Shown here in pieces: positions 32,788 through 52,150 of a stretch of 64,000 nt of DNA. Made by a program: the position numbers and the translations under genes. The notes under the pieces are model-generated. The model did not search any database, was not told where the DNA came from, and saw nothing but the letters and a program-made list of their open reading frames with translations. The first letter of the stretch is position 1, and each line of letters opens with the position of its first letter. The DNA is from Candidatus Omnitrophota bacterium (GTDB taxonomy: Bacteria > Omnitrophota > Gorgyraeia > Zapsychrales > JANLHA01): assembly GCA_022711395.1 (NCBI GenBank), contig JAKLFA010000002.1, positions 195,864 through 259,863 of the forward strand, written 5' to 3'.

Positions 32788-34191
32788 TTAAGGGTTCTTA
32801 TGGGAGTCCGCAAGACGGCATTTTAAAAGGTGCGGAGTCGCATCATGGATTTTGACAGAGAGTGTTTCTCCCAGTCGCAGTTTCCCTATTTCTGAAGTTT
32901 TTGCGGCGATCTGGGTCCGCTTATTATGAATTGTGCGTCCTTCCACCGCATTTGGCCTTATGTTGTCGATGAGGCTCTCAAGCGTTTTTCCGATCATGGC
33001 CTGATTGCGCTGCAGGGCAAATTTTTGTTGGAGATCATTGAGGAGCAAAATCCGCTCAGTTTTCACCTTTTCAGGGACATCATTTTTGTAATCGCGTTCG
33101 GCCTTGGTTAACTTACGCGGAGAATATTTAAAAATAAAAGCGGAGTCGTAGCCCACTTTGTTGTAAACATCGACCGTGTCTTTGAACTGTTCATCGGTTT
33201 CGGTCGGAAATCCCACAATGATATCCGTGGTGATGGCGATTTCGGGACAGGCGGCGCGCAGTTTATCCACGATTGTCAGATAGTGTTCTTTCGTGTAGGG
33301 ACGGTTCTTCTTTTTAAGGACTTCATTACTGCCAGCCTGCAGCGGCAGATGAATGTGTTTGCAGAGTTTTGGGTGACGGGCGATCAGTTCGATCAATTCA
33401 TCCGCAACGTCTTTGGGGTGCGGCGATGTGAACCACACGCGTTTGACTCCCTCCACATCGCAAACCTGCCTCACAAGGTCCGGGAAACGTGTGTCTTTGT
33501 AGCTGTAGGAGTTCACATTCTGCCCGAGGAGTGTGACCTGGGCGAAACCCTCTTTGACCAGCTTGCGTGTTTCATTGACGATTCCTTTGGGTGAACGGCT
33601 GCGTTCTCTCCCGCGGGTGTAGGGCACCACACAGTAACTGCAGAAATTATTGCACCCGCGCATGATGGCGATCCAGGCATTGGCCGCGCTTTCACGGTTG
33701 GGATAAATGTCCTCATAGGTCTCGGTATCGGAAAGCTGGATGTCGAAGGATTTTTCCTTTCCGGCCTTTTGGATCAGGTCAGGGAGCTTTTTATAGGAGT
33801 CCGGGCCGACGATCAGGTCCAGGTCCAAATGCGGGTCGCTGATGAGTTCCTCGCGCAAATTGGTCGCCATGCAGCCCAGGATGCCGAAGATCGCGGGAAC
33901 GCCCTGCCGGTCATGACGGATCCGGTGAATGAGTTCGAATATTTTGCGGTTGGCGTTCTCCCGCACCGAGCAGGTGTTAAGAAGGATCACGTCGGCGTCC
34001 TGTTCGCTGTCCGTAAACGTAAACCCCTTCTCCGCCAGGATCGACCGGATGAGCTCGGTGTCATACTCGTTCATTTGACATCCGAAGGTGACCAAAAGTA
34101 TGCGTTTTCCTGCTGAACCGGCAGGTAACTTCTCTTGGTCTTTTCCGTCGGAATCGCCGCTTTGCCCATCGTTTCGCATTTTTTCAGACAT
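32788..34191 (-). CDS. miaB: tRNA-2-methylthio-N6-dimethylallyladenosine synthase (methylthiotransferase family)
   Basis: 467 aa; MTTase N-domain FGCQMNEYD...NTCSVRE, radical SAM CNNFCSYC, C-terminal TRAM domain. The start is uncertain: the low-complexity N-terminus overlaps the recombinase gene. Confidence 0.85.
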   Translation of the reverse strand: MSEKMRNDGQSGDSDGKDQEKLPAGSAGKRILLVTFGCQMNEYDTELIRSILAEKGFTFTDSEQDADVILLNTCSVRENANRKIFELIHRIRHDRQGVPAIFGILGCMATNLREELISDPHLDLDLIVGPDSYKKLPDLIQKAGKEKSFDIQLSDTETYEDIYPNRESAANAWIAIMRGCNNFCSYCVVPYTRGRERSRSPKGIVNETRKLVKEGFAQVTLLGQNVNSYSYKDTRFPDLVRQVCDVEGVKRVWFTSPHPKDVADELIELIARHPKLCKHIHLPLQAGSNEVLKKKNRPYTKEHYLTIVDKLRAACPEIAITTDIIVGFPTETDEQFKDTVDVYNKVGYDSAFIFKYSPRKLTKAERDYKNDVPEKVKTERILLLNDLQQKFALQRNQAMIGKTLESLIDNIRPNAVEGRTIHNKRTQIAAKTSEIGKLRLGETLSVKIHDATPHLLKCRLADSHKNP

Positions 34192-35777
34192 TTCATCCCC
34201 TCTTCATAACAAATTTTCCAAGGCTCGTTAATATCAACCTTGACTATCTCCTGATTTTGAATGTAGACCGCCCTAAAAATAATCCGCATGAACGTCTTGA
34301 CCAGATAGTCCCTCTGCTCGTCCTTCGGATTACTGCGCAGGCGAACCAAGAAATCCTGCGTGGCCTTGACCAGATTAACCGAATTGCGACGCTCAAGCAC
34401 CTTTAACTGGATCGCCTTAACGTCCTGCTTTAACTTTTTCTCCTCGTTACGCAAAAGATCAGCGCGCTCTTTGTAGATATCGGCGTTGATCTTATCCTCC
34501 GAGAAAACCTCATACAGCACCTTCTGCTTCTCGATATTCTTGCCAAGCGCCTTCTCCTTCGCGTCCAGCTCGTCAATAAGATGCTGTTCCGGTTCGGTCG
34601 CGGTCATCTTGATCACGTCACCCAACTCCTCGATCACGTGAAGGTTTTTGCTGATGATATCAATAATATCCCAGACCTGCTTATTGACAGCGTCCGCCGT
34701 CACCGACTTATTACCGCATTTGACGTAAGACACGCCCACAGACGAACAACAATACCACGGCCTGCGCGCTTTCGTGCGATGATTGGCCGTTAGCGTCAAG
34801 CCCCGGTAATTCCGTCCGCAAAGGTTACACTTTAACACGCCGGACAAGTGATACACATTATTCCTGAACCGCACAACAGCATTCGTGCGATTTGTAGCCA
34901 GCCGCTTTTGCGCGGCATCAAACGTCTCTTGCGTGATGATGGACTCATGAGCGTTCGGCACCTCGATGATCTTTGACGGATCATTATGGACGTAACGATA
35001 TCCCTTGCCCTCGCCGTTCCTTGTCTTGGTCTTCATATCGTAATGCTTACGATTCCAGACGAGCGTGCCTAAATAAGTTTTATTGCGCAAAATATCGGAA
35101 ATAAACTTGCCGTAAAATCGTCCGCCCTGTCTTGATGGAATACCCAAGTGATAATAATGCCCGGCTATCTGCGCGGTGCTCTTACCGCCAAGATAGAGCG
35201 TAAAAATATCTTTAACGATCCTCGCCTCATCGGGATTCACTTCAAGCTTCTTGGCTTCTTTATTATAGCGGTAGCCATACGGCGCGTAGCGGGCTCCCTG
35301 CCAGTGGCCTTTCTTGACACCAACAATCATGCCCGGGAAAACACGCTCAACCAGACGATTGCGCTCAAACTCGGCGCAACTGCCGAGCATCTGAATCGCC
35401 ATCTTACCGGCGCTCGACGTTGTATCGAACGGCTCGGTCGCTGACTTATAGCCAATACCGAGTGCCTCAAATTCCTCAAGTAACCCCAACAGATCTTTAA
35501 GCCGACGGCTCAAGCGATCCTGTTTATATACCATGACCAGATCGAATTGCTTATTGCGAGCATCCAGCAATAACCGTTTAAGCGCCGGGCGATCCATATT
35601 CCCGCCGGAATACCCGTCATCCATATAAACGTCTCTGCCCGACATTGTGCAAATAACATCCCAGCCGAAATTCTTCGCATATTGCAAAAGATAATTTCTC
35701 TGCACCTCCAGCGAAAAGCCTTCGCGCGCCTGATCCTCTGTGCTAACTCTTGTGTATAATGCTACCTTCATTGTCAT
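34071..35777 (-). CDS. large serine recombinase (integrase)
   Basis: 568 aa; resolvase catalytic domain VALYTRVSTEDQ (nucleophile Ser), recombinase domain, Cys-rich zinc ribbon (CNLCGRN...CCSSVGVSYVKCGNKS) and coiled-coil C-terminal region. Confidence 0.85.
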   Translation of the reverse strand: MTMKVALYTRVSTEDQAREGFSLEVQRNYLLQYAKNFGWDVICTMSGRDVYMDDGYSGGNMDRPALKRLLLDARNKQFDLVMVYKQDRLSRRLKDLLGLLEEFEALGIGYKSATEPFDTTSSAGKMAIQMLGSCAEFERNRLVERVFPGMIVGVKKGHWQGARYAPYGYRYNKEAKKLEVNPDEARIVKDIFTLYLGGKSTAQIAGHYYHLGIPSRQGGRFYGKFISDILRNKTYLGTLVWNRKHYDMKTKTRNGEGKGYRYVHNDPSKIIEVPNAHESIITQETFDAAQKRLATNRTNAVVRFRNNVYHLSGVLKCNLCGRNYRGLTLTANHRTKARRPWYCCSSVGVSYVKCGNKSVTADAVNKQVWDIIDIISKNLHVIEELGDVIKMTATEPEQHLIDELDAKEKALGKNIEKQKVLYEVFSEDKINADIYKERADLLRNEEKKLKQDVKAIQLKVLERRNSVNLVKATQDFLVRLRSNPKDEQRDYLVKTFMRIIFRAVYIQNQEIVKVDINEPWKICYEEGMKCLKKCETMGKAAIPTEKTKRSYLPVQQENAYFWSPSDVK

Positions 35778-35949
35778 CTTTTAAAGTTGACCGCCATTTT
35801 TTGATCTCGGCGATGCACTCATCTGTAAACACCGGCCAGTTCCTGTAATCCCGCTTTGGCTTAATCCAGCCCTTGCGCACCCAAGCGAGCATGGTCTGCC
35901 GGTGCACGCCCAGTTTTTTTGCCGTCTCTTTCATGTTGTAAGTCTTCAT
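35743..35949 (-). CDS. excisionase/MerR-family HTH DNA-binding protein (Xis/AlpA-like, candidate RDF)
   Basis: 68 aa; MKETAKKLGVHRQTMLAWVRKGWIKP HTH pattern; overlaps the recombinase start. Confidence 0.65.
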   Translation of the reverse strand: MKTYNMKETAKKLGVHRQTMLAWVRKGWIKPKRDYRNWPVFTDECIAEIKKWRSTLKDDNEGSIIHKS

Positions 35950-35996
35950 ATCAGCACCCTCTATGATTGGGCTTTAGTATACCCTGATATACACCA

Positions 35997-36194
35997 TCAT
36001 ACAAGGTTTTTCTTCTCTTCCCCGTACGAGAGAAAAAACATTTTCGATAAGAGCTCAATGCCGGATTCAAAGGATTTTCGAGCGTCCGCTATCTCAAGTG
36101 CAGACAGACCCCGGGCTTTGAGCTTTGCTTCCAAAGCGTCCCAGCCCCGCGGCTCTGCCCTGACTTCGTTTAATATGCTCGATTCCTTTTCCAT
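35997..36194 (-). CDS. hypothetical small protein
   Basis: 65-aa ORF in the element, same strand as neighbours. Confidence 0.3.
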   Translation of the reverse strand: MEKESSILNEVRAEPRGWDALEAKLKARGLSALEIADARKSFESGIELLSKMFFLSYGEEKKNLV

Positions 36195-36235
36195 GTTCTC
36201 TTCCTGCTACGACTGACATACTGACATTCGGCGTG

Positions 36236-36547
36236 TCACTGAATGTCACTCAAATTCCCCTCATTCGTGCCTAAAACGCCCTGTTTTGAAGCGGAATCCG
36301 CCCCATTTGGCGCGTTTTCGCCATCCCACTGACACTGACACGAGTTTTTGAAATTGATATCACTGACAGACTGCGCCTCGGCTGACCCGCGCCAAAGCCC
36401 CTCCAGAAGGACCCACTGCTTAAAAGACGCCGGGGTCACATGCAGACGCGCGGTCACGCTCCGGCCATCGGGTGACGGAAAACGCACATACACCCAGAAG
36501 CCCGGCTTCCATTTCTTCTTCCTGTACTTAAAGCTGTACCATCCCAT
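36236..36547 (-). CDS. hypothetical protein
   Basis: 103-aa ORF with a basic N-terminus (KYRKKKWKPGFW). Confidence 0.3.
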   Translation of the reverse strand: MGWYSFKYRKKKWKPGFWVYVRFPSPDGRSVTARLHVTPASFKQWVLLEGLWRGSAEAQSVSDINFKNSCQCQWDGENAPNGADSASKQGVLGTNEGNLSDIQ

Positions 36548-36651
36548 GATTCACCTCGATTAAGAGATGGCGCGGAGCTGGGCGTGAAACCGCAGGAGGT
36601 TGCGAAAGACGCCCGGTACTTCATCGTTTGAACACTCCGCGCCAAATTGGT

Positions 36652-37290
36652 TCACTTTTTCACCTTGCGATGACGCTCAATCTTCGCCTCGAATTCCTTG
36701 TCCAGATCGAACTCGCGAAAGCGCAGGTGATAACTGTCCTTCTCAATTTCCTTTTCAAAACAAGTCGGATGCGTTAGCGCGCGCTCCGCCCGCTCCTTTT
36801 CAATCATAAAAATATGATTGGTTTGACTGTTAAACCGAAACAGTCTTCCGTCACTCATATAAGTGTCAGCAACGGCTCCGAGAAAAGACTGCGCGAACAC
36901 CAACAACCTCGCGTGCATGCGGGCAAATTCCTCGTCGCAAAACCTTCGTTCCGCGCATATTTCCTGATTCAATCTGTTTGCCTCTGTCTTTAACCCTTCC
37001 TTTTCTTCTTCAAGCGCCATCCGCAATTTATCTTTGAGCTTGTTGATGCTTTCAATGATCGCCTCATGATTAAGCGTGGCGTCTTCCATCCGCGCGTCCG
37101 CTTCTTTGATCTGATTTTCTCCTATCGGCTCTCCGCACAGTTTCTTCTGTCGCAGGCCTTTTGACACCGCGCGGAGCGCCTCTTTTTCTTTTGCCGCTTC
37201 TTCTTGCCTCGCTTCAAGAAGCACAATCTGCTCGGCAACCTCATCCGATGTGCTCTTGCGACTTAACACGTTCAAGAAATTGATCTTCAT
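36652..37290 (-). CDS. hypothetical coiled-coil protein
   Basis: 212 aa, heptad-rich (EARQEEAAKEKEALRAV...); no family recognised. Confidence 0.4.
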   Translation of the reverse strand: MKINFLNVLSRKSTSDEVAEQIVLLEARQEEAAKEKEALRAVSKGLRQKKLCGEPIGENQIKEADARMEDATLNHEAIIESINKLKDKLRMALEEEKEGLKTEANRLNQEICAERRFCDEEFARMHARLLVFAQSFLGAVADTYMSDGRLFRFNSQTNHIFMIEKERAERALTHPTCFEKEIEKDSYHLRFREFDLDKEFEAKIERHRKVKK

Positions 37291-37389: not shown

Positions 37390-37665
37390 CGTCGACTACC
37401 CTACTTTTTCTAAGCGCTCTTTATGTGCCTCTACGGAGCTTTTTCTCTCTCTTTTTCTTTCTTGGAAAAAGAAAGAAACGACATTCACAACATTCACAAA
37501 CCACATAACCTCTTGTGGATTATGCGGATAATCCGTGACCAGCGTTGTGAACGTAGCCCCTCGACAGTCACAATGGTCACGCCTTTTAATACGGCCTCGT
37601 GTCGTCTTCTTCACAGAATCCAGCCCCTTGTTCACGTTCGTTCACGCCTTCGTTCACACTGTTTT
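37390..37665. repeat. array of GTTCAC-type iterons (P4 ori/crr type-I-iteron-like TGTTCACC) overlapping the 3' end of the primase gene
   Basis: CGTTGTGAACGT occurs twice (37391 and 37543), ATTCACAACATTCACAA once, and TTGTTCACGTTCGTTCACGCCTTCGTTCACA (three GTTCAC in 32 bp at 37630-37662). Confidence 0.5.
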
Positions 37666-39961
37666 CAAAAAGCGAATTACCCTTCACCTTGCGTAAAATA
37701 ACCAGCTTCCTGCCTGTCCCGCCCTCCCGTTTTTCAGGCCGCAAAATATCGATGCCCACACTGCGCATGACCGGAGCGATACGCATAAGTTCTGAACCAA
37801 GCGCTCGGGCATTGCCGGGTATGGTCTTATCAAAACCCGTTTCCGGCTGAATGCACTCAAGAAGCGTGGTCGCTGATCCCTGCCACTCTCCTCCGTTTGA
37901 TTCCACAAGATAAACCAGCCGCTGGGCGAAGGTGCTCTCCTCGGCAGTGTCCTCCCATTTGTGATCAACGGATTGCTGATACCGCTTAAAGAACTCCTCC
38001 CGGGAAAAGCCTAAATACTCAGCCAGTGCCGCGCCCCACTGCGCGAAGTCCGACATCCGGAAACGCTCATGGCCGGACACGCCGTCAATAACCGCCATGG
38101 CATTTGAAATAGCCGAGAAGAATCCGCCGAGAATGCCGGGAAGCGAAGCCCGCCATTCATAAGCGATAACCTTCTCCGGACGGGTTTCTCTTAGGATTGG
38201 GATATCGAAGATAATCGAGCGGTCTAACAAGTCCGGGCGGCAAATAGAACTGCCGATCCCATTAAGAACAAAACACCGGCGATAAGTCCGGATGAACTCC
38301 TCATCATTGGTGTAAAGCGAACGCTTCATATCGCCTTCGCCAGTCACAGCCCGGCAGAGAAAATCGCTGAACCATTCGGACACCCGGGAAAGATTGTCAA
38401 AATTATTCACCCAGTGCTTGTCCGCGATCATCTGTGCCTGCTCCAAATCCTTGGGCACGGAAATGGACATCACCTTGGAAGGATCGCACAGACTTTTAAT
38501 GAGGCGTGAGTTATTAGATTTGCCTGTTCCCTGCTCGCCGATCTGCACCGGTATGACATGAGGAATATCGGGAATAAAGAACGTCGCGATAGCCATCATA
38601 AAAAGACAGGCATCGTTTTTATTGATATTGCAAAACTCCAAGAGCTTTTTGGGGTCAGAACCTTTGACCGGCAAAACCTGCTCTGCCTGATGCGAGTATC
38701 GCTTGAATATCGGCGGCAAGAAAACGACTTCCCAGCCGTCTTTGGTAATAACTATCCCCCGCCAGTCTTGGGTAGTGAGATCATAATAAATAGCCCCGTT
38801 ATGCCAGCCGACACGGTTATAAAGCTCGACCTGTCGCCCACTTTCGCACTTGGCTTCAATCTGGACTTTCGCTTGCTTTAAGGCTTCACTTCCCGGAGGA
38901 TGGCCAAAATCATGACGGTAGCGCATCGCGCAGTAATTCCTGAAACGGGAACTGCTGGTCTGGCAGACTTCAAGATGTTTATCAAACGGCAGAACAATAT
39001 ACGGATTCCCCTGCTGGTCGCGCAGATACTCGCTGATCGTCTCTTCGCAGTCGCGGGTAATGATCTCGCCTTGGGTGAGCTTCTTCTCTTTCGGGAATCC
39101 TGACGCTTCAAACACATTTTTGACATCTTTAACGGCCTTATCAATAACGCTTTGCCCATATGTCCTGCCATCACCGAAATGCTTCTCATCCCACTTTGGC
39201 CGCATGAGCCCGGACTGACGAAAAAGCAAATCCATCAGCCCGTCATCCTTTCCAGTCCAAAAGGCCAGCTTATTGCAAAGTGCCAAGTCAGCTTCTGATT
39301 GAGATGGATATGATTCCTGCCACCTGCCTTCATAAAGGGCGAAGAACGCCTCGCTGTCATTGCTCTTTTTTATCTTGCCAAGTATGCTTCGGACGCTCTT
39401 CTTTTCTTCCTCGGCCTGCTTCAATTCTTCAAACAGCTTCAAGAGCTCGTCTTCTCTTGCTTCGATCGTTCTTTTGCACCCCGGCACGATATCGCCTGTG
39501 ATCGTAAAGAACCTGCCTCCGGAATACATCTCAACACCAAGCTCGCTAAACTTGCGATCGTTGGGAAGCTCGCCTTTACAAAGGATATGAATACCGGTGC
39601 CGCTGGGAGAGAATTCGGTATAACTGTCCAGTACCGATATGATCTTTCGGGCATACGATGCGATAACGCCATTCATCACGCATCCGTCAATATCAATGCC
39701 GACGGTAGGCTTGGTTATTGCAAAGCCGATCGCGTCAAGGCCCAACGCTAAAGACCGGGCGATGACCTCACCAAGCGGCCGCCATGTTTTTGGATCATTG
39801 GACTTGGCATTGCCGCCGGTTGCGACATTGACCGGGACCTTTTTCGCCTTCTTGTCTTTTTGGGGGATGAATTTGAACCCAACGCCTATTGGCGGGCTCA
39901 TGATTTCCTGCGGGATATTCTTCTCTTCCCACCTCTTCACTTTTCTTCTCTCTTCGCTCAT
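37586..39961 (-). CDS. primase-helicase (prim-pol domain plus D5_N plus SF3 helicase; P4 alpha-like)
   Basis: 791 aa; archaeo-eukaryotic prim-pol motifs VGIDIDGC ... SPSGTGIHILCKG and SF3 Walker A GEQGTGKSN. The architecture is typical of phage/plasmid P4-family primases. Confidence 0.8.
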   Translation of the reverse strand: MSEERRKVKRWEEKNIPQEIMSPPIGVGFKFIPQKDKKAKKVPVNVATGGNAKSNDPKTWRPLGEVIARSLALGLDAIGFAITKPTVGIDIDGCVMNGVIASYARKIISVLDSYTEFSPSGTGIHILCKGELPNDRKFSELGVEMYSGGRFFTITGDIVPGCKRTIEAREDELLKLFEELKQAEEEKKSVRSILGKIKKSNDSEAFFALYEGRWQESYPSQSEADLALCNKLAFWTGKDDGLMDLLFRQSGLMRPKWDEKHFGDGRTYGQSVIDKAVKDVKNVFEASGFPKEKKLTQGEIITRDCEETISEYLRDQQGNPYIVLPFDKHLEVCQTSSSRFRNYCAMRYRHDFGHPPGSEALKQAKVQIEAKCESGRQVELYNRVGWHNGAIYYDLTTQDWRGIVITKDGWEVVFLPPIFKRYSHQAEQVLPVKGSDPKKLLEFCNINKNDACLFMMAIATFFIPDIPHVIPVQIGEQGTGKSNNSRLIKSLCDPSKVMSISVPKDLEQAQMIADKHWVNNFDNLSRVSEWFSDFLCRAVTGEGDMKRSLYTNDEEFIRTYRRCFVLNGIGSSICRPDLLDRSIIFDIPILRETRPEKVIAYEWRASLPGILGGFFSAISNAMAVIDGVSGHERFRMSDFAQWGAALAEYLGFSREEFFKRYQQSVDHKWEDTAEESTFAQRLVYLVESNGGEWQGSATTLLECIQPETGFDKTIPGNARALGSELMRIAPVMRSVGIDILRPEKREGGTGRKLVILRKVKGNSLFENSVNEGVNEREQGAGFCEEDDTRPY

Positions 39962-40720: not shown

Positions 40721-40721
40721 C

Positions 40722-40781: not shown

Positions 40782-40818
40782 GAACAGTGATCAGCTGTCC
40801 CGTAAGTCTATTTTTATT

Positions 40819-43125: not shown

Positions 43126-45623
43126 TTTTCACCCCAAATCTTAGAAATACGCTCACAAATTTTTGTTGAATATATGTCTATAATTCTTCGATTCGAATTA
43201 ACAAGCTGTTCCGTTTCATCTAAAAAAGTCACTACTTTTTTTTGCGTATCAATATCGGGAAGTAAAAACTTTAGCTTATAAGCGTCATTACGATTGAGAC
43301 CAGGTACACCAGCTTGAGTATTAACCTTATCGAGCCGCATTGATAGCATTTGATAATAAGCGAATTTCAGATCTAAAGAATCTATCTTGTTGATTTTGAC
43401 ATAAAAAGTGGTATCAATTGGGTATCCTGATTTTTCTGAGTATGTAACAGCACCCGCTGTTCCTTTTCTCCCCACTACAACAAAAGGCCCATCCACTAAA
43501 TATTCATTATGCCAGCCGACTATGCCATTAGACCCAAAAACGGGATATTCACCAGCGATTCTATTTTCCTCTTTAAGTGGCTTCCCGTATTCCAAAGACA
43601 GAACATCTCCTAATTCTACAACTGGCCATTCGGGATCAGAGTCAATACGCGGATTATAATTATCAGTAACCTGACGAGCCCCCGCAACAATCTTTTGATA
43701 ACTACTTAATTCTTCAACTATTTCTTCCTGTACAGTCATCGACGGGAGTGGGATTTTGATTTCTTTGACCTCTAGGCTAATACCTCCGATAATTCCTTTA
43801 ATATACGGCTTCAATTTTTGTTGGAAATCATCCGACCTGATGATTGCATAAAGATATTCCGGAAGGATATTCTGCCGAGCCCTTAATATAAAAACATGTT
43901 CATTTACAGCGGCGGCTTCGTTGCAGTCAAAATATCCAGTCTTTCCAGTTGTTGCGCCATCTTTGACAATTAGAACATCTCCTTTTTTTAGAATACCTTT
44001 CTTCATCGATTGGAAATGTTCATTAGTGACATATTTCATTTTTTCAAACAGGATATCACCATGTTCATTTATCTGCTCGCCCCCGATGCTCGGAATGCCC
44101 GACGAAACCGCGCCTCCTTTTTGTCGTGATCCGCTTTCTATATCAACAACATCTCCTAATTCAACCATCGGCCACTTAACGTTAACATGAGTTTCCTTTA
44201 ACCCATATCGTTCGCCACTCAAGTTGTATGTGCCGCCTTTTGCGATCTTGCTTTTTTCAATTACCTTTATTTTTTGCCATGCGTCATCTTTAAATTTGCC
44301 TTCTGAAATAACGGCCTTCTTGTATTCCATGATTGCGCGATATGCATCCGGCAAGTCATTTTCTTGTATCGGACGCCTCTGCGCGCCAAGATCAAAGCCA
44401 TCGTTTTCGATCTTCACGAATAAAAGATTATCCGTTTTCTTAACAAGCTGTTTGTCGAGCCACAATATGGACGTCTTAACGCCAGAGTATGGATTAAAAA
44501 GTCCAGCTGGAAGAGAGATAACTCCAACCAGATACTCTTCAACAAGCATTTTTCTAAGCTGCCTATAGGCTGTATCGTTTTGAAATATTATTCCTTCTGG
44601 AACAATGATTGCGGCACGCCCCATTGAAGTAAGATGCTCAGCCATATAATCCACAAAAAGCACCTCTGAGCGCTTGGATTGGACAGAAAAACGCTTATGT
44701 GGTTTTATCCCACCTTTAGGCGACATGAATGGAGGGTTTGCGAGAATGACCTCTGCTTTTTCATCCCATTTGTCGTCTCGCGTTAATGTGTCATACTCAT
44801 AAATTTTTGGGTTGCTAAAACCATGGAGATACATATTCACCAAAGACAATCTAACCATATCCGGAGAAATGTCATATCCTGAAATATTATCAACAAGCCG
44901 TTTGCGATCGTCAGAGGTTAATTTTTCCCCACGGTATCCTTTGCCATTAATCGTGATCTCCGAAAGCTTGATATTTTGAAGCTCAAATGGCTTTGGATCA
45001 TTCTTAGGATCATAGTTCTTCGAGTTATGCTTAATAATATATTTGTATGCGGATATCAAAAACCCGCCCGTTCCGCATGCTGGATCCAATATCTTTTCGT
45101 TCTTTTTGGGCTCCAGAATCTCTACCATAAAATCAATGATATTTCGCGGCGTTCTGAATTGCCCGGCCTCGCCTTGACTTCCTAATATCGAAAGCAAATA
45201 TTCAAAAGCATCGCCAAGACGCTCAGAGTGATCGTATTCAAACTCATTAATTTCTTTTAGAAAACTTTTAAGCGTTTCTGGGTCCCGATATGGCAAATAC
45301 GCGTTCTTAAAGATATCCCTAAATAACTGCGGGACATTGGGGTTTTGATTCATATTCTGTATTGCTTCGCCATACAGATTTACAATGTCATAGCCGCTTT
45401 TTTGAGGTGAAAAAACGTTACGCCACGAATAATCTTTAAATTTATCGGTAAAGAATTTTGCCTTACCGCGAGGCAATAGCTCTGCCTGCCTGTCCATGTC
45501 ATCCATAAACTTATAAATTAGGGCAATTGTAATTTGCTCAACTTGAGATTTAGGATCAGGCAATTTACCGACTAAAATGTCTCGCGCAGTATTTATTCGC
45601 CTTTTTGTAATGTCATCTAGCAT
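43122..45623 (-). CDS. hsdMS: Type I restriction-modification HsdM-HsdS fusion (N6-adenine methyltransferase plus two target-recognition domains)
   Basis: 833 aa; methylase motif I LDPACGTGGFL and motif IV NPPF; C-terminal half has two TRD-like repeats (WPMVELGDVVDIESG... and WPVVELGDVLSLEYG...). Confidence 0.8.
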   Translation of the reverse strand: MLDDITKRRINTARDILVGKLPDPKSQVEQITIALIYKFMDDMDRQAELLPRGKAKFFTDKFKDYSWRNVFSPQKSGYDIVNLYGEAIQNMNQNPNVPQLFRDIFKNAYLPYRDPETLKSFLKEINEFEYDHSERLGDAFEYLLSILGSQGEAGQFRTPRNIIDFMVEILEPKKNEKILDPACGTGGFLISAYKYIIKHNSKNYDPKNDPKPFELQNIKLSEITINGKGYRGEKLTSDDRKRLVDNISGYDISPDMVRLSLVNMYLHGFSNPKIYEYDTLTRDDKWDEKAEVILANPPFMSPKGGIKPHKRFSVQSKRSEVLFVDYMAEHLTSMGRAAIIVPEGIIFQNDTAYRQLRKMLVEEYLVGVISLPAGLFNPYSGVKTSILWLDKQLVKKTDNLLFVKIENDGFDLGAQRRPIQENDLPDAYRAIMEYKKAVISEGKFKDDAWQKIKVIEKSKIAKGGTYNLSGERYGLKETHVNVKWPMVELGDVVDIESGSRQKGGAVSSGIPSIGGEQINEHGDILFEKMKYVTNEHFQSMKKGILKKGDVLIVKDGATTGKTGYFDCNEAAAVNEHVFILRARQNILPEYLYAIIRSDDFQQKLKPYIKGIIGGISLEVKEIKIPLPSMTVQEEIVEELSSYQKIVAGARQVTDNYNPRIDSDPEWPVVELGDVLSLEYGKPLKEENRIAGEYPVFGSNGIVGWHNEYLVDGPFVVVGRKGTAGAVTYSEKSGYPIDTTFYVKINKIDSLDLKFAYYQMLSMRLDKVNTQAGVPGLNRNDAYKLKFLLPDIDTQKKVVTFLDETEQLVNSNRRIIDIYSTKICERISKIWGEK

Positions 45624-45637
45624 GATAATCCCCTCTT

Positions 45638-48160
45638 TTAAATAAACGTGTTTAATGGCACGTAATCTTTGACGTATTCAATAACCGGATCCATCCACCC
45701 GTCTAAATCATGCAAATCTTGCATGTTAAAACGCGGATTCGTGGCAAGTGAACTGAATTCACCTGTCTCCATTATCTGCTGGATTTCCTTATCCAAAATA
45801 TATGCCTTCATGAAATGCCCGATAATTGATACAAACTCCGGCTCCGGGTGATATATGGAAATAAATTTCTGAACTTCTTCTTCAAGGAGCTCGTCTTTAG
45901 TCTTAAATTTTTTGATTTTGCCAAAAATCTTTTCAAGGATTTCTTTCAGGCTCAATCTGCGGTCGAGTTTGATAGATTTTCTCAGTTTATCCAGATTGAA
46001 ATAATCCTCGGGCTTATCAAAAACTTTGTCTTTGATATACGCCTCGGCTTCTTCGTACTTTCCCTCATAAATCTTATTCTTAATGTGCTCATCATGGCTT
46101 ACGATTTCCTCGAACTTCTCGAAGAACTTTCTGTCAATTCGCATCCCTTCATAGCCTATGGGCGTCTCATCGATCCCAACAAGCGGATCAGGATTCACGT
46201 TTTCATACTCTCTCGGATTGGGTGGCGGAAAAGGCCCGGGCCCCGTAGTTCCGGGAGTTGTGGGCGGTAACGCAATAACCTCGTCATAGGGATATTTTTC
46301 TTCAAAATATTCACAGTTCGCAAAGAAATCAAACAGCTTAAATCGCTCTTTTTCTTTTTGAACTTCGTCTATGCCCCCGATACCATCTGGCTGTTTATAA
46401 GAAAACGTGTATTTTCGGGTTCCTCGACCTTTCATTTGAATAAAATCGGTGGGCGAGAAAATAGGGCGCATTAAACACAAATTGAGGATATCTTGACAAT
46501 CATATCCTGTGGTCATCATTCCAACCGTTACACACACCCGCGTCTTTGATGAATTATACCCATCCAAGAATTTCGAATTACCGCTAAGGCGGTTATTGGC
46601 GAAATTGATGGCCATTTGTTGAGAACCATCGATATTTGATGTAACCTGTACCGCAAAATCAGAGTTATATTTTTCGGGGAAATATTTATGTGCAAGCTCA
46701 TTTAAAATTTGCGTAATCTTTGAAGCGTGATTTTGGCTTACACAGAAACAAATCGATTTTCCTATTTCATTTGTAAGGGGATCCTTGAGAGCATTGTCCA
46801 AGAATGTCTTACACAGGGACAAATTTGTTTCTTCCGAAAACAGCCTTCGTTCGAAATCTTTTCCGAAAAAGATCTTCTTTTCAGACTCCCCGTCCTCGTT
46901 CTCTATTAATACAGCGTACCCTTCTTCAGAAAGCAACTGGGTTGTAATTTCTGTTCTTGCATCAACCACGATGGGATTGATTAAGTACCCGTCTTTCACT
47001 CCATCTAAAAGGGTATAACGAAAAGTGGGATCGGTATCTTTACATCCGAAAGTCGTATACGTATCTAAGAGCTGGCGCCTTTCCAGCGCCCTTGGGTCAT
47101 GGTGCGCCAGCTGTTGCTCATCAACGTTTCGCAAATAGTTTTTCGGTGTTGCCGTTAATCCTAATTTATAGCCCGTAAAATATTCGAAAACTGCCCGGCT
47201 ATTCCCACCTATTGACCTATGAGCCTCATCAGATATGACAAGATCAAAGTCTGTTGGGCAAAATAAATCCTTGTATTTATTTTTAAATAACAATGACTGA
47301 ACCGTCGAAACTACAATCTCCGCTTTTGTCCAATCATCCTTGTTCTCTTTAAAAATGACACATTTAAAGTCTTTCTTGAGGTAGGCTACAAAATTCTTCC
47401 ATGCTTGATCTTCCAGCTCGAGGCGATCAACCAAAAACAACACCCTTTTTGCGTTACTTGTTCTTAAAAACAACTTAATCACGGCCGCCGAAACAAGCGT
47501 TTTTCCTGTCCCAGTAGCCATCTCAAATAAAAATCTGTCTTTCCCTTGAGAAACCGCTTCTTGTATCGAATGTATAGCCTTTAACTGGTACTTTCTCAAA
47601 AAACGAAGACCGTTATCTTCAACAAAAGATTTTCTTTGGCTGGGATCGACCCACCGTGGATCTTTTGAATAATTCTGGTTTTGAGTTAAAACTATATAAT
47701 CCTCATCAATCTGTTCTCGAACGATTGCGTCGGGATTAGGCTTAAAAGATTTCTTATGCGTTATAGAGGCCGCTGTAGGGAATGTTGTTATAACATACGG
47801 ATTGCCCGATTCTATGTCCCAGAAGTAATGAAGATTTCCATTTGAAAGAATAATAAAACGAACATTTAAAGAATTGGCATACTGCCGAGCTTGCTCTTTA
47901 CCATCCAAAGGATTTTTGCTTTCACTCTTAGCTTCAAGCACACAAAGAGGAAAAGAATTTTTATCCATCAAAAGATAATCAGCGTACCCTTTGCTGGCTT
48001 TTTCAAAGTCCTCCCCCAGCTCATTAATGGCGATTTCCGTGATTGGCGTATTTACCTCCAGCCGAATGTTTGCTTTACCATTCTGATCGTCAAAAAAACG
48101 CCAACCGGAATCTTCTAGTAACTTATTGATCTTGATTCGTGCTTTAGCTTCTTTCGCCAT
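45638..48160 (-). CDS. hsdR: Type I restriction enzyme R subunit (HsdR family, short EcoEI-like form)
   Basis: 840 aa; N-terminal PD-(D/E)xK nuclease (D...CVLEAKSE), SF2 helicase motif I MATGTGKT and motif II ISDEAH, C-terminal helical domain. Confidence 0.8.
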   Translation of the reverse strand: MAKEAKARIKINKLLEDSGWRFFDDQNGKANIRLEVNTPITEIAINELGEDFEKASKGYADYLLMDKNSFPLCVLEAKSESKNPLDGKEQARQYANSLNVRFIILSNGNLHYFWDIESGNPYVITTFPTAASITHKKSFKPNPDAIVREQIDEDYIVLTQNQNYSKDPRWVDPSQRKSFVEDNGLRFLRKYQLKAIHSIQEAVSQGKDRFLFEMATGTGKTLVSAAVIKLFLRTSNAKRVLFLVDRLELEDQAWKNFVAYLKKDFKCVIFKENKDDWTKAEIVVSTVQSLLFKNKYKDLFCPTDFDLVISDEAHRSIGGNSRAVFEYFTGYKLGLTATPKNYLRNVDEQQLAHHDPRALERRQLLDTYTTFGCKDTDPTFRYTLLDGVKDGYLINPIVVDARTEITTQLLSEEGYAVLIENEDGESEKKIFFGKDFERRLFSEETNLSLCKTFLDNALKDPLTNEIGKSICFCVSQNHASKITQILNELAHKYFPEKYNSDFAVQVTSNIDGSQQMAINFANNRLSGNSKFLDGYNSSKTRVCVTVGMMTTGYDCQDILNLCLMRPIFSPTDFIQMKGRGTRKYTFSYKQPDGIGGIDEVQKEKERFKLFDFFANCEYFEEKYPYDEVIALPPTTPGTTGPGPFPPPNPREYENVNPDPLVGIDETPIGYEGMRIDRKFFEKFEEIVSHDEHIKNKIYEGKYEEAEAYIKDKVFDKPEDYFNLDKLRKSIKLDRRLSLKEILEKIFGKIKKFKTKDELLEEEVQKFISIYHPEPEFVSIIGHFMKAYILDKEIQQIMETGEFSSLATNPRFNMQDLHDLDGWMDPVIEYVKDYVPLNTFI

Positions 48161-48177: not shown

Positions 48178-48885
48178 TTATTTGTTTAAAATCCCTATGT
48201 AATCCTCAAAACTATAATAATTACTGCCGCCAACTATTATGTGATCCAGTAGCCTTACTTGCATGGTCTTGCCAGCTTCGAACAATTGTTTTGTGAAGTC
48301 CTTATCAGGTGTGCTTGGTGTTGTGTCGCCAGATGGATGGTTATGAACGCAGACAATCGACTTGGCGAATTTCTGTAATGCGGCATGAATGATCTCCCGG
48401 ACAATCGGGAACGCCTGATCAACAGTACCGACCGAAGCGTCTGAAATATCAATGATGCGGTTCTTGTTATCAAGATAAATAACCTTGAACACCTCTGTTT
48501 TAAGGTCGCGGAGCTGGGGCAAAACAATATCCACAACGTCCTTGGCAGAGGCGATCTTCTGCTTCCCGGTGGACACATCGTCCTGTCGATAGCGCCGCCC
48601 GATTTCAAGCGCGGCCTGAATATGGGCGATCTTGGCCCCGCCCAAACCCTTGAATTCCTTCCAGTCGCGGGCGTCGGTGTGGGCCATACTCCTGAATGAA
48701 CCGAACTTTGCGAGGATCTTGCGGGAAAGGTCGATGGCGCTTGTGCCTTTGGAGCCAGTGCGAAGCAGAATGGCTAGAAGCTCTGAATTACTCAAAGCTC
48801 CCGCGCCCTTCTTGAGGAGTTTCTCTCTCGGCCTGTCATCCTCCGGCCAAGTCTTTATGCCTGTAGCTTTTCTTTCCTTCACCAT
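48178..48885 (-). CDS. radC: RadC-like JAB-domain protein
   Basis: 235 aa; LSNSELLAILLRTG HhH N-terminus and JAMM-like HNHPSGDTTPSTPD motif. Confidence 0.8.
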   Translation of the reverse strand: MVKERKATGIKTWPEDDRPREKLLKKGAGALSNSELLAILLRTGSKGTSAIDLSRKILAKFGSFRSMAHTDARDWKEFKGLGGAKIAHIQAALEIGRRYRQDDVSTGKQKIASAKDVVDIVLPQLRDLKTEVFKVIYLDNKNRIIDISDASVGTVDQAFPIVREIIHAALQKFAKSIVCVHNHPSGDTTPSTPDKDFTKQLFEAGKTMQVRLLDHIIVGGSNYYSFEDYIGILNK

Positions 48886-48912: not shown

Positions 48913-48964
48913 CTGCAACCAGTGGTTGCAGATTTTGAGCCAATTCTTGCACCAATGGTGCAAG
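48913..48964. promoter_or_regulatory. pair of 8-3-8 inverted repeats upstream of radC (candidate operator); a third exact copy at 50152-50172
   Basis: CTGCAACC-agt-GGTTGCAG (48913-48931) and CTTGCACC-aat-GGTGCAAG (48946-48964). The 21-mer TTCTTGCACCAATGGTGCAAG recurs exactly inside the DUF1016 CDS. Confidence 0.45.
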
Positions 48965-48977
48965 AAACACATTACTT

Positions 48978-49446: not shown

Positions 49447-50469
49447 TCATATTTGATCTACCAATTCCTGAATCTGTTCCGGTGACGGTAATTGTTTCTT
49501 TAATTCTTTAGGCAATTTCGTTGTTATTTTATATTGCGCTACCGCGATCGGCTTGTTGCTTTCTTTTAGCGCGTATTCCACAATCGTCCGTTTCTTCTCC
49601 TTGCAAACGATAATCCCTATGGATGGATTTTCATATTTTTCTTTCATCTCGGCATCCAAGGCGGCAAGATAAAATTGCATCTTGCCAACATACTCCGGTT
49701 TAAACTCGCCGATCTTAAGCTCTATAGCCACCAGACAGCGTAATCTGCGATGATATAGCAGTATGTCGATAAAATATTCATTGCCCTCAATCTCAAGCCG
49801 GTACTGATTGCCCATGAAGGCAAACGCGCCACCCATTTCGATAAGGAAACGATTAACCTTAGCGACAATCGCGCGTTCAAGCTCCAACTCGCTATGCTCC
49901 TCTCCTAATTCGAGAAAGCCAAAAGAATACTCGTCTTTAACAGCCAGTTTTGCCTGCTTTTCTATCTTGGCCGGTAGGGTTTTGCCAAAATTAGTCTGGT
50001 TAACCATCGTTTTTTCGTACGTCTTATTTTCAACCTGATGGACAAGCACCTCTTTTGTCCAACCCATGCGTTTTGTCATGCGAATATAAAATTCACGCTC
50101 AAGGTCATCCTTACACTTCTCCATAACAACAATATTATGTGACCAGCTAATTTCTTGCACCAATGGTGCAAGTTTTGTGCTTTTCTCATAGCGAAGATAA
50201 AATTTACGCATTCTCCAGAGATTATCCTTTGAATATCCGGATACTCCCGGGAATTCCTTCTGTAAATCCTGCGCAAGGTTTTCAACCACAGATTTTCCCC
50301 AATTATGTCTCCCTTGCCTATCAACAATCTTTTTCCCGAGATCCCAATAAAGGCTTATAAGTACGCTGTTAACATTTTTCAAAGCATCATACTGAGCGGA
50401 TCTAATCCGCTCTTTAACTTCTCGCAAGAAATCCGAGTAATGTTTGTTATGAACCAAGCTCTGTGTCAT
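49447..50469 (-). CDS. YhcG-like PDDEXK nuclease (DUF1016 family)
   Basis: About 340 aa from MTQSLVHNKHYSDFLREVKERIRSAQYDALKNVN...LYWDLGKKI, which matches the DUF1016/YhcG N-terminal pattern. C-terminal restriction-endonuclease-like fold (IDILLYH...LVAIELKIGEFKPEYVGKMQFY). Confidence 0.7.
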   Translation of the reverse strand: MTQSLVHNKHYSDFLREVKERIRSAQYDALKNVNSVLISLYWDLGKKIVDRQGRHNWGKSVVENLAQDLQKEFPGVSGYSKDNLWRMRKFYLRYEKSTKLAPLVQEISWSHNIVVMEKCKDDLEREFYIRMTKRMGWTKEVLVHQVENKTYEKTMVNQTNFGKTLPAKIEKQAKLAVKDEYSFGFLELGEEHSELELERAIVAKVNRFLIEMGGAFAFMGNQYRLEIEGNEYFIDILLYHRRLRCLVAIELKIGEFKPEYVGKMQFYLAALDAEMKEKYENPSIGIIVCKEKKRTIVEYALKESNKPIAVAQYKITTKLPKELKKQLPSPEQIQELVDQI

Positions 50470-50485
50470 CTTTCTCCTCCAAAAT

Positions 50486-50671
50486 CTATTTTTTGGCCTT
50501 TGAGCGCTTCGTCTTGTATTCCTCAATCAACTCGCGCATGATCGCCGCGATGGAGGCTTCCTTGTCCTGCTTTTGACGCTCAAGAGCCTCCTGCTTTAAA
50601 AAGAAATAAAGGTCGTCCGGAATATCCAGCGTCGTCCGGTGCATTTTTTCATTGTTTCTCGTTACTCGCAT
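50486..50671 (-). CDS. ribbon-helix-helix (CopG/antitoxin-like) small DNA-binding protein
   Basis: 61 aa; TTLDIPDDLYFFLKQEA beta-strand/helix pattern of RHH proteins. Confidence 0.45.
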   Translation of the reverse strand: MRVTRNNEKMHRTTLDIPDDLYFFLKQEALERQKQDKEASIAAIMRELIEEYKTKRSKAKK

Positions 50672-50684
50672 GGTATTAACCTCG

Positions 50685-51431
50685 CTATTTAATGACTTTC
50701 CAGTTATTGAGGAAATATGTTACCTCGTGTTCCCGCCTGCCGAGATAGAGCTTATCAGCGACGAACTTCAAGGTCATACGATATGAATTCCCCTTGTTGA
50801 TCTCAAGAATCGCCCTCTCGTGCAGTTTCTGCTCTAAGACAAGATATGGGAATATCACAAAATCGGTTTTACTCTCGTCACGCAAAACACAGACGTAAAA
50901 AATATTGCTTGAATTAAACCGCTCAAACGATGTTCGTCGCACATCAAAAACGTAGGTATTATAACTATTGAGATTAGCGGTTTTAACCTGAATCTCAAAA
51001 CGTTTGTTATCCTTTATCGCCACGATATCAATGCCGGTATCCACGCTCATGATGCTGGCATTAAAACCCCTGAACAGAAGCTCACTGCAGACACGGAATT
51101 CTCCGCCTTTGCCGATAAAACCCGTCTCGACGGAATAGGTGTCCCCCTGCGCGGGAAGCGGAGCCGATTTTACTGGCACAGGTTCTTTATAATCCGGATT
51201 GATCGAAAAAGTGGCAGGCGATACTCTTTTGAATATTGACTTATCCCCGTAACGCTTTATATCCACAACGATTTGAGCGTTCATGGTCGCTTCGGGTGTC
51301 GCGCCTTGCGTCTCAAATAATCCTTCCTCTAACGCCTTGCGGGTGATCTCCCGATAATGAAGCGGTTCCTTGAACTTCTTGAGGATAGTAATCGCGGCCT
51401 GCTTAAAGGTATTCATGCCATATCCTTTCAA
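50685..51431 (-). CDS. HARE-HTH (Mrr-N-like winged helix) plus PD-(D/E)xK restriction-endonuclease-like protein
   Basis: 248 aa; N-terminal FKQAAITILKKFKEPLHYREITRKALEEGL... winged HTH; C-terminal GIDIVAIKDNKRFEIQVKT (D ... ExK). Confidence 0.55.
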   Translation of the reverse strand: MKGYGMNTFKQAAITILKKFKEPLHYREITRKALEEGLFETQGATPEATMNAQIVVDIKRYGDKSIFKRVSPATFSINPDYKEPVPVKSAPLPAQGDTYSVETGFIGKGGEFRVCSELLFRGFNASIMSVDTGIDIVAIKDNKRFEIQVKTANLNSYNTYVFDVRRTSFERFNSSNIFYVCVLRDESKTDFVIFPYLVLEQKLHERAILEINKGNSYRMTLKFVADKLYLGRREHEVTYFLNNWKVIK

Positions 51432-51517
51432 TTGGCTTTAATTATGGCATTATAGCATTTTAAGTTTTGAAAGGAAATGATTTTTTACGCTGATGCGGGT
51501 TTTGTTTTAAGGCGGGA

Positions 51518-51790
51518 TTAGAGGACGGATTCTTGAATCTTGCCGGTCGTGGCATCCACGATTCGGAAATGGGTCTTGCCGGTGCGGTCTTTCCACTGCT
51601 CTTCGATATTTAGGGTCCAGTCACCCAGAGGCATGACTTTCTGGATCTCCCGCAGGCGAAGCTTACCGGCCGGGACCGCACTCAAGAGATCGCCCTCGGT
51701 TGAGATGTTTTCCACATAAACTTCCTCACCAGCCAGCCGGACGCTGATATAGCGGGTTTTCTTAACCGATTGCTCGATAACTTTTGCCAT
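51518..51790 (-). CDS. hypothetical protein
   Basis: 90-aa ORF, first gene downstream of the palindrome-containing intergenic region. Confidence 0.35.
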   Translation of the reverse strand: MAKVIEQSVKKTRYISVRLAGEEVYVENISTEGDLLSAVPAGKLRLREIQKVMPLGDWTLNIEEQWKDRTGKTHFRIVDATTGKIQESVL

Positions 51791-51994
51791 ACGCCTGCCT
51801 CCCTTTTGGGGTCAAGTAGGCCATAGGGTCGAGCTATTGGCAAGGAATTTAATTGGGGTTGCAAGCCTAACCCCCTCATGTCAATAATATGTCACAACCT
51901 GATTTATTACAGATAGTTAGAAAGAATTTGGGAAGGCTGTTTTGTCAGAAATAATATATACTTTTTGTGACAAGATTAAATGTCTACTGGATGG

Positions 51995-52037
51995 AAATGT
52001 CCACTATTTAGTGGACATTTTGAAAAAGTGGACATTT
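51995..52037. promoter_or_regulatory. 26-bp perfect palindrome plus third half-site (candidate operator)
   Basis: AAATGTCCACTA-TT-TAGTGGACATTT (12-2-12, 51995-52020), then AAAAGTGGACATTT at 52024-52037. Lies in a 360-bp AT-rich intergenic region that also has a GGGGTT...AACCCC hairpin and TTGTCA/TGACAA elements. Confidence 0.45.
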
Positions 52038-52150
52038 ATGACCGCAAATCACTCCCCCACAATCGCAACGGCAAGCTCAGACATAGTGTTACGATAAATA
52101 GGCCAACCGCCATCCGAAGGTTTTAAGATAAACTTTGTTTGACATATTTT

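Follow-up and report, generated by a model that had tools for sequence, protein, structure and literature searches.

An 18-kb element inserted in miaB of a Candidatus Omnitrophota bacterium and the overprinted leader with which it very probably repairs its target gene

The stretch of DNA analysed here (hereafter, the window) comprises 64 kb of contig JAKLFA010000002.1 (forward-strand positions 195,864 to 259,863) from the Candidatus Omnitrophota assembly GCA_022711395.1, and all coordinates are given in its own numbering. Near its middle lies miaB (32788-34191, minus strand), the 5' end of which is shared with a gene for a large serine recombinase (34071-35777, minus strand, 568 aa); further upstream follow a small helix-turn-helix (HTH) gene, a primase-polymerase gene, a repeat region and a set of restriction-modification (R-M) and nuclease genes. 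Together they occupy an integrated element of 18,032 bp (34079-52110, minus strand, counting one copy of an 11-bp core; GC content 0.444), which sits within codons 9-12 of miaB. It is very probable that this is an integrative element driven by its large serine recombinase, which repairs the target gene with a leader of its own overprinted on the recombinase gene.

The recombinase carries the Resolvase (PF00239 at 1.2e-33, residues 5-158), Recombinase (PF07508 at 1.7e-22) and Zn_ribbon_recom (PF13408 at 8e-9) domains, and Pfam thus confirms the large serine recombinase with a YTRVSTEDQ motif and a zinc ribbon that an initial annotation, made from the sequence alone, had proposed. This motif holds the serine nucleophile of the catalytic domain, and the protein also matches the PHROG 95 integrase family at 2e-110. 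A Phage_integrase domain is found nowhere within the element, which marks the recombinase as a serine and not a tyrosine enzyme. Neither a phage collection (50,697 records) nor a plasmid collection contained an integrase more than 33% identical to it.

The ends of the element were read directly from its two junctions with the chromosome. An 11-bp direct repeat, ACCTTCGGATG, flanks it on the minus strand, at 34079-34089 as the core of attR (attachment site, element/chromosome side) and at 52111-52121 as the core of attL (chromosome/element side). The repeat occurs exactly twice in the 64 kb, both times at a predicted end, against an expectation of 0.06, and two or more copies were seen in none of 100 shuffled sequences. 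Since the two junctions have just these 11 bp in common, the crossover must fall within 34079-34089. At the recombinase end, the minus strand reads ...GGAAAACGCATACTTTTGGTCACCTTCGGATG followed by TCAAATGAACGAGTATGAC, encoding ...GKRILLVTFGC and then QMNEYD, while at the far end ATGTCAAACAAAGTTTATCTTAAAACCTTCGGATG is followed by GCGGTTGGCC... and encodes MSNKVYLKTFG, an ordinary MiaB start cut after the same 11 bases. This orphaned native 5' end (52111-52145, minus strand) has its ATG at 52145, 5 nt past the stop of a chromosomal SAM-methyltransferase gene (52151-53050), and now runs into the element (MSNKVYLKTFGWRLAYLS, then a stop). The insertion has therefore cost miaB its native ribosome-binding site, its start codon and its first 11 codons. 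The sites at ~34.08 and ~52.11 kb lie inside the zones (34.05-34.2 and 51.8-52.15 kb) in which the initial annotation, having placed an insertion at the 5' end of miaB, expected them. The predicted excision products are ...TTTTGGTCACCTTCGGATGGCGGTTGG... (attP) and ...CTTAAAACCTTCGGATGTCAAATGAAC... (attB).

The base composition and skew of the region break exactly at the junction. Every sizeable open reading frame (ORF) between 34.07 and 51.9 kb lies on the minus strand, in line with the single-strand organisation first described. The accompanying claim that the element is richer in AT than its flanks holds for the cargo half (40.25-51.5 kb, GC 0.415) and fails for the recombinase-to-primase module (0.494), which resembles the flanks (0.50-0.51). 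GC skew is the sharper signal of the element, being -0.136 within it against +0.04 in the left flank, with the sign flipping at 34 kb.

What distinguishes the recombinase-side junction is that the same nucleotides serve two genes. The recombinase ORF spans the attP core and overlaps the miaB ORF by 121 nt, as against the 120 nt first given. In the integrated state, its last two codons and its stop are host-derived, the stop (TGA, 34073-34071) being chromosomal and formed by the miaB codons CAA-ATG-AAC. The predicted episomal recombinase would instead continue past the core into the opposite end of the element (...PSDGGWPIYRNTMSELAVAIVGE, then a stop), giving 586 aa in place of the 568 aa of the integrated form, an extension of 18 residues. 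Conversely, the last ~120 nt of the recombinase gene also hold a Shine-Dalgarno-like GAGGGG, an ATG and a leader ending in ...KRILLVTFGC. This dual-coding stretch (34079-34205, minus strand) consists of the Shine-Dalgarno-like sequence GAAGAGGGG at 34205-34197, the ATG at 34191 and 37 element codons plus the TG of a Cys codon, the encoded surrogate leader MSEKMRNDGQSGDSDGKDQEKLPAGSAGKRILLVTFGC being read in a frame other than that of the recombinase, whose C-terminal codons here give ...YEEGMKCLKK...AYFWSPSD.

The surrogate leader is joined in frame with the chromosomal QMNEYD..., and the resulting chimeric miaB (32788-34191, minus strand) encodes 467 aa with complete UPF0004 and radical-SAM domains; PF00919 is matched over residues 31-128, covering profile positions 2-97 of 98. 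The codons targeted by the insertion (9-12, T-F-G-C) encode the strand that leads to the first cluster-binding cysteine. Instead of the native MSNKVYLKTFGC..., the protein now begins MSEKMRND...RILLVTFGC.... Both the junctions and the shorter native 5' end of an unoccupied relative, described next, bear out the earlier suspicion that this odd N-terminus was supplied by the element.

Among GTDB representative genomes the best MiaB is only 55% identical, and no empty site was obtained in this way. The protein database, however, yielded a 99%-identical MiaB (P0001) encoded on a metagenome contig of 1.7 kb (L081). This contig runs uninterrupted from the methyltransferase 3' end through ATGTCAAACAAAGTTTATCTTAAAACCTTCGGATGTCAAATGAACGAGTATGAC..., a sequence identical to the attB rebuilt from the two junctions; it joins the outer flanks of the element precisely, aligns with the window at 98.9% identity beginning exactly at 34089 and has an intact, shorter miaB 5' end (MSNKVYLKTFGCQMNEYD). 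The exact recombinase protein was found integrated beside miaB in two further samples, the occupied copies coming from ENA ERZ27257480 and JGI 3300025902 and the empty site from ERZ27257465. A genus-level relative with an 81%-identical MiaB (L082) likewise has no element and shows the gene order methyltransferase, class-D beta-lactamase-like gene, miaB, nadA, ... metX, metW. The comparison of related genomes called for by the initial annotation thus returned an empty site in a 99%-identical strain and synteny without the element in a more distant one; the miaB 5' end is not identical in all relatives, and both an att duplication and an empty site exist.

Metagenome contigs were also scanned for attL-type junctions, yielding three real matches (L091-L093) and one chance match (L090). 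In the real matches, three different native miaB starts (MNVFLKTFG, MKHSHKLPAVYIRTFG and MKVFLKTFG) join the same element end at the same nucleotide, ACCTTCGGATG being followed by GCGGTTGG. The element end is 86-98% identical to that of the window, as against 73-77% for the adjacent host methyltransferase. One of these copies (L092) departs from the window after ~1.6 kb inside the element and is therefore indicated to carry different cargo. The insertion is thus confined to one position of miaB, is polymorphic for presence and absence and has spread across host backgrounds.

The genus-level relative lacking the element provides an additional observation. At L082:3249-3515, three bases past the beta-lactamase-like gene, a GTG-EKDTRKVFIRTLGC constitutes a decayed native miaB start, and ~75 nt beyond this relic an intact miaB begins with a long leader (MKKLFKETPNSKQRENLAPKTSATFSTPESGVTSKRLTVFLLTFGC); of the element itself only ~200 nt are left, its interior having been lost. 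The locus resembles what an internal deletion would leave of an element of the same family, with the surrogate 5' end retained as a working miaB start. Because a genome without the element would thus have retained a relic native start together with a surrogate leader on an intact miaB, the surrogate leader is probably functional. Long atypical MiaB N-termini are known from some relatives (P0002, P0006).

The recombinase belongs to a large family, with hundreds of homologues, of which those bearing a source name are mostly from Candidatus Omnitrophota. The family counts given here refer to the 120 best recombinase homologue clusters (44-93% identity). As many as 101 of the 120 end in ...P(S/T)(D/A)(V/A)(R/K) and a stop, that is, in the miaB-derived stop, because the miaB codons T-(F/Y)-G-C-Q-M-N give this ending in the recombinase frame. 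Homologue loci at 84, 75, 65, 50 and 44% identity were inspected at the DNA level; in all of them, the recombinase abuts UPF0004/radical-SAM (miaB) sequence, and the second frame holds a Shine-Dalgarno-like motif, a start codon and a leader ending in (K)LR(I/V/C)LLRTFGC or VVFIKTFGC. Wherever miaB was called as a gene at these loci, it overlaps the recombinase gene by 4 nt (ATGA). The dual-coding arrangement recurs in L083, L084, L086, L089, L094, L095 and L096 (the leader signal of the last being AGGAGG-N5-TTG), so that leaders with a Shine-Dalgarno sequence and a start codon are known from eight distinct elements. Furthermore, the same miaB codon position is used in the window, L083, L086-L088, L091-L096, L099 and L100. 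In one member of this set (L083:11725-11800), the target past an 84%-identical recombinase reads TFGCQMNLRDSEFV and not QMNEYD, and is possibly another methylthiotransferase paralogue or a diverged miaB.

In 15 of the 120 clusters, a read-through tail of ~10 to more than 40 residues stands in place of the miaB-derived ending (PSDARWLRYSRTMERQKTC, PTDGRWLRYRGTMEKIAEAIIKWE and others). Those for which DNA is available (L084/L085, L089, L097 and L098) are attP-type junctions. Element-type genes, HipBA among them, come after the attP-form recombinase in L097. Neither L097 nor L098, both contigs with the attP form, overlaps itself at its ends, and circularity was not demonstrated for them. An RW..(Y/C) motif occurs in 10 of the 15 tails, and the predicted episomal tail of the window has the same W..Y spacing. 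Selection on the tail was considered and is not claimed, as by a rough reckoning the lengths are about those of read-through in random sequence.

Two of the attP-type relatives deserve separate mention. At L084:11600-11830 (and alike in L085), a recombinase 80% identical to that of the window shows attP-type read-through and has chromosome-like genes (Fur, Nitro_FeMo-Co, ferredoxins, CbiA/MinD-like) behind it on a contig of 36.6 kb, which would represent a large episome or an otherwise fixed element. L089 (IMG/VR UViG_3300029286_003022) is phage-like, encoding a small terminase subunit and a T7 gp14-like internal virion protein; its recombinase is of the same family (72% nt identity), with the same overprinted miaB leader and attP-type read-through.

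Apart from the recombinase, the contents of these elements vary. The replication modules across the family include NrS-1 primase-polymerases, DnaG/Toprim primases and Replic_Relax proteins (the latter, together with ArdA, in L094 and L096), and the cargo ranges over SIR2, UvrD, DpnI/Dam, HipBA, an RND pump and type I R-M. Because replication modules and cargo vary in this manner and one relative is phage-like, the recombinase together with the miaB junction is, as judged from these comparisons, a portable module for integration that serves elements of several kinds.

The remainder of the element can be divided into a conserved module beside the recombinase and a cargo half. A 68-aa MerR/HTH_17 protein (35743-35949, minus strand) overlaps the recombinase start, matches Pfam MerR_1 at 7e-7 and gives weak matches to PHROG excisionases, in keeping with the Xis-like HTH of the initial annotation. 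A small HTH homologue lies directly upstream of the recombinase in L084, L087, L094, L095 and L097 also. The protein is the best candidate for a recombination directionality factor, or else it may be a regulator. Beyond it, the conserved module holds three ORFs without assigned function (65, 103 and 212 aa; 35997-37290, minus strand), which have no match in Pfam, PHROGs, NCBIfam or PDB; the 212-aa ORF is homologous only to its counterpart in L087, at 32% identity. A stretch of 257 nt at the start of the 103-aa ORF and upstream of it (36330-36583) is 87% identical at the nucleotide level to L086-L088, the surrounding element DNA being ~70% identical, and is adjoined by short TGTCAGTG- and ACTGACAT-type repeats (window 36212-36583). 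It could encode a strongly constrained small protein or constitute a cis-acting site.

An NrS-1-type primase-polymerase of 791 aa (37586-39961, minus strand) is supported by PF22763 at 3e-29, a PHROG DNA primase profile at 6e-73 and the PDB entries 6a9w/7rr3 at 1e-35. The primase-polymerase domain (NrS-1 HBD) makes up the N-terminal ~300 aa, and the C-terminal half is uncharacterised, with a P-loop-like motif. Of the primase-polymerase/D5/SF3 assignment made earlier, the first part is upheld by these matches; for the D5/SF3 helicase no supporting profile was found, and the Walker-A-like GEQGTGKS was recognised by eye only. A small DUF5659 protein (39964-40194, minus strand; profile match) adjoins it, as it does the primase in L097. 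It is followed by a non-coding repeat region of ~870 nt (40259-41124) with five copies of ~50 nt, 2.7 copies of 72 nt and two copies each of 41 nt and 26 nt. The repeats of the iteron origins proposed by the initial annotation are thus present, and their position beside the primase makes the region a candidate iteron origin.

The cargo begins with a 418-aa PD-(D/E)xK protein with a DUF1054-like domain and a 237-aa, weakly HEPN-like protein (together 41143-43125, minus strand), downstream of the R-M system. The 418-aa protein (41143-42399) belongs to a family of at least 1000 homologues of ~420 aa that lacks a Pfam assignment and has an invariant PD...E-x-K motif (GLPDAW...LIESK). Its structural model (pLDDT 87.7) shows an N-terminal PD-(D/E)xK and a DUF1054-like domain, with weak fold matches (2a8e at E 3e-4; generic PD-(D/E)xK). 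In a Thiohalophilus genome (L101), a homologue adjoins a type I R-M system and an AAA/peptidase_S8 pair. The type I R-M system of the element (43122-48160, minus strand; Pfam, PADLOC) is composed of an 833-aa HsdM-HsdS fusion (43122-45623), in which a specificity subunit with two target-recognition domains is fused to HsdM, and an 840-aa HsdR (45638-48160), with PADLOC scores of 1.5e-67 for REase_I and 3e-95 for MTase_I. It is followed by a RadC-like JAB protein (48178-48885, minus strand; profile match), a 151-aa ORF without assigned function and a DUF1016/YhcG PD-(D/E)xK nuclease (49447-50526, minus strand; PADLOC candidate system PDC-S02).

Towards attL lie a 61-aa RHH-like ORF (50486-50671) and a 248-aa HARE-HTH protein (together 50486-51431, minus strand), as well as a 90-aa ORF without assigned function (51518-51790, minus strand; from the ORF list). 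Thus, the type I R-M system with extras, RadC and the DUF1016 nuclease named in the initial annotation have matches in Pfam and PADLOC. The RHH protein has none, its appearance having been judged by eye only, and of the HARE-HTH/PD-(D/E)xK protein the first half is secure (3e-20) and the second weak (PDDEXK_5, E 0.008). Two copies of a 17-bp palindrome (TTGCACCA-A-TGGTGCAA) lie 1.2 kb from each other, one upstream of radC (48941-48967) and one within the DUF1016 gene (50151-50177).

Four (A)ATGTCCAC-type repeats, in inverted pairs, cluster 70-130 nt inside attL (51977-52038) and are conserved in L091-L093; they are candidate operators or accessory binding sites. An Rfam scan of the element gave no matches. 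On the chromosomal side of attL, a class-D (OXA-like) beta-lactamase/transpeptidase-fold gene with an STFK motif (52903-53694) lies two genes upstream of the native miaB start and is kept in L082 at 85% nt identity. The interval between the 253-aa methyltransferase (54455-55216) and miaB differs among the genomes compared: the two genes are directly adjacent in L091-L093, the beta-lactamase-like gene stands between them in L082, and in the window they are separated by a lipoprotein, the beta-lactamase-like gene and a second methyltransferase, with GC skew slightly negative to ~56 kb. This variable interval (52111-56000) may reflect older insertions at the same hotspot.

The nature of the element can be weighed against this evidence. 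That there was no insertion at all, the arrangement being ancestral and the long MiaB N-terminus native, would be in accord with the long atypical N-termini of P0002 and P0006. This can hardly be credited in view of the empty site, the orphaned second miaB start 18 kb away and the break in composition and skew exactly at the junction; moreover, P0002, too, has a relic native start beside its long N-terminus. A decaying prophage remnant or a fixed, immobile genomic island would agree with the lack of structural genes and with the decay scars in relatives, such as the ~200 nt that L082 retains of a former element. It is nevertheless very improbable, as the recombinase and the small HTH gene are intact, as are the two att cores, near-identical strains differ in whether the site is empty or occupied, and the same element end is found in three other host backgrounds at an identity above that of the hosts.

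A phage satellite, excising with the help of a phage, replicating through its primase-polymerase and being packaged in helper capsids, with a defence cargo protecting the host and itself, is suggested by the resemblance to P4-like satellites and phage-inducible chromosomal islands (PICIs): these too are small, with an integrase at one end, a primase-type module and a variable anti-phage region. The integrase, small HTH, primase, repeat region and variable defence cargo in the absence of structural genes are consistent with this; the presence of the recombinase family in the phage-like L089 indicates that compatible helpers exist in these hosts, and the three conserved ORFs without assigned function could be hijacking factors. 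However, P4 and PICIs use tyrosine integrases and carry capsid-redirection or packaging genes, whereas this element has a serine recombinase, no such genes recognised and no evidence of helper dependence. Searches of Pfam, PHROGs and NCBIfam returned none of the satellite hallmarks (Psu/Sid/Delta, TerS, Ppi/Cpm, capsid), a cos site not having been searched for, and the only TerS-like signal was a non-significant match (E 0.009, PHROGs) on the small HTH protein. The primase-polymerase with its adjacent repeats is analogous and not homologous to P4 alpha, its helicase domain being unconfirmed. Furthermore, the three ORFs are poorly conserved between relatives, and nothing ties excision to phage infection. 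A satellite is hence considered unlikely, and the P4-like label of the initial annotation, in support of which no hallmark (no Psu/Sid/Delta, capsid or terminase) was found, is not retained.

A somewhat better case, though one that still falls short of an even chance, can be made for an integrative plasmid or integrative mobilisable element that would exist by turns in the chromosome and as a replicating episome and spread by mobilisation, transformation or vesicles instead of capsids. It would account for the element's own replication module and iteron-like repeats, for the attP read-through form of 15 of the 120 homologue clusters, by which unintegrated copies would be common in metagenomes (as in L097, where element-type genes follow), and for the Replic_Relax and ArdA proteins of L094 and L096. 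Against it stand the lack of a recognisable relaxase, oriT, coupling protein or partition gene in the element and of a demonstrated circular contig, L097 and L098 being without terminal overlap. 'Integrative, probably self-replicating, defence-carrying element' is the label that fits the data.

Several points weigh against an active element that integrates through its recombinase and restores miaB. The contig with the empty site is only 1.7 kb long and derives from a sample other than those of the occupied copies. The attP (circular) form of this very element was not found, all three real matches of the junction scan being attL. Clear dyad symmetry was not detected in attP or attB, where 9-12 of 24 arm positions matched as against ~6 by chance and no centre stood out to place the crossover dinucleotide. 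No transfer function of any kind was recognised among the element genes, and no capsid, packaging, terminase, conjugation, relaxase, secretion or partition gene was found in its ORFs with Pfam, PHROGs and NCBIfam. Finally, a promoter for the chimeric miaB was not identified, its expression being assumed, nor was a terminator found that would separate it from the recombinase gene; the sigma-70 promoter and terminator scans around the junctions gave counts no higher than in shuffled sequence and are hence uninformative.

On the favoured reading of a serine recombinase-driven element that repairs miaB, we infer that the recombinase is catalytically active, that the chimeric miaB is expressed and that the directionality, origin and defence functions reside in the genes and repeats described above. 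From what is known of serine integrases, the recombinase would join attP and attB at a dinucleotide inside the 11-bp core. Integration would sever the native start, ribosome-binding site and first 11 codons of miaB, and the element leader in the second recombinase frame would restore a complete MiaB; the recombinase would then end at the TGA donated by miaB (568 aa) and, on the excised circle, at 586 aa. Excision would probably need the small HTH protein, which appears to be translationally coupled to the recombinase, and the circle would probably replicate from the repeat region by means of the NrS-1-type primase-polymerase. The type I R-M system and the other nuclease- and defence-type cargo presumably pay for carriage.

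A further proposal, that the att junction is a three-way coding state switch, in which ~40-120 nt serve as attP arm, recombinase C-terminus and MiaB N-terminus and integration changes both the recombinase isoform and the control of miaB, is regarded as quite doubtful, because the tail lengths match chance read-through by the rough reckoning above. Were it true, a 586-aa episomal isoform (tail type xxW..Y..(M/L)) would give way to a 568-aa prophage isoform with another activity or directionality, as in Mx8 Int. Likewise, miaB would come under transcriptional and translational control of the element, making the ms2i6A tRNA modification of the host, and hence its translation, tunable.

Large serine recombinases are known to act on attP and attB sites of ~40-50 bp with little shared sequence, recombining at a central dinucleotide and requiring a separate directionality factor for excision. 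Elements of this kind within host ORFs include SPbeta in spsM, skin in sigK and A118 in comK, which have a short att site and restore the gene upon excision. These split and inactivate their gene until excised, whereas the present element keeps its target open with a new 5' end.

The closest known system in logic is that of the dusA-specific islands and prophages, which enter a tRNA-modification gene at a single position of its 5' end, the island sequence replacing that end and the gene staying open (Farrugia et al., 2015, PMC4482086). Like the family described here, they form a large group set by integrase and target, with variable cargo, a single 5'-end site and a replacement in-frame start. 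They differ in having a DAI tyrosine integrase and dusA as the target, in place of a large serine recombinase and miaB. The other targeted tRNA/rRNA-modification genes given in that paper are only thdF/mnmE, rimO and rluA, and not miaB, and the passages covered do not describe a surrogate 5' end that overlaps the integrase gene. In myxophage Mx8, attP lies inside int, and integration gives a new 3' end and C-terminus, which alters the behaviour of the integrase (PMC6070905). Mx8 has a tyrosine integrase and an attB elsewhere in the host chromosome, as opposed to a serine recombinase and an attB in miaB, and the functional effect of its new C-terminus is established, whereas for this element there are predicted isoforms only (two host codons and a stop against an episomal tail longer by 18 residues). 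BPs-type mycobacteriophages, a tyrosine system, place attP within the repressor coding sequence, truncation of which serves as an immunity switch, as far as the available parts of the source convey (PMC4557955). On that description, attP lies inside a coding sequence and integration changes the product in both systems, the gene being a repressor there and the recombinase here. In the literature covered, which was incomplete, no report linking miaB to serine recombinase or prophage integration was found, and this constitutes absence of evidence only.

What is new at this locus is the ribosome-binding site, start and leader overprinted in the recombinase gene, the ORF that runs across attP and borrows its stop from miaB, and a family that shares this stop. 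A conserved, essential-looking coding site is thereby occupied without cost, as the surrogate 5' end is overprinted and the stop is taken from the host. The element origin of the leader, including scars left after loss, also accounts for the unusually long N-termini with which some MiaB proteins have been annotated. The family is a large, previously unreported group of serine integrases whose natural target, the TFGCQMN-coding stretch of miaB, is known and highly conserved; real attL, attR and attB sequences, and attP sequences from relatives, are available and can be put to direct use in the testing of new orthogonal integrases. Apart from these uses, it provides a handle on mobile elements and the traffic of defence genes in Omnitrophota, a phylum for which metagenomes are almost the only source of knowledge.

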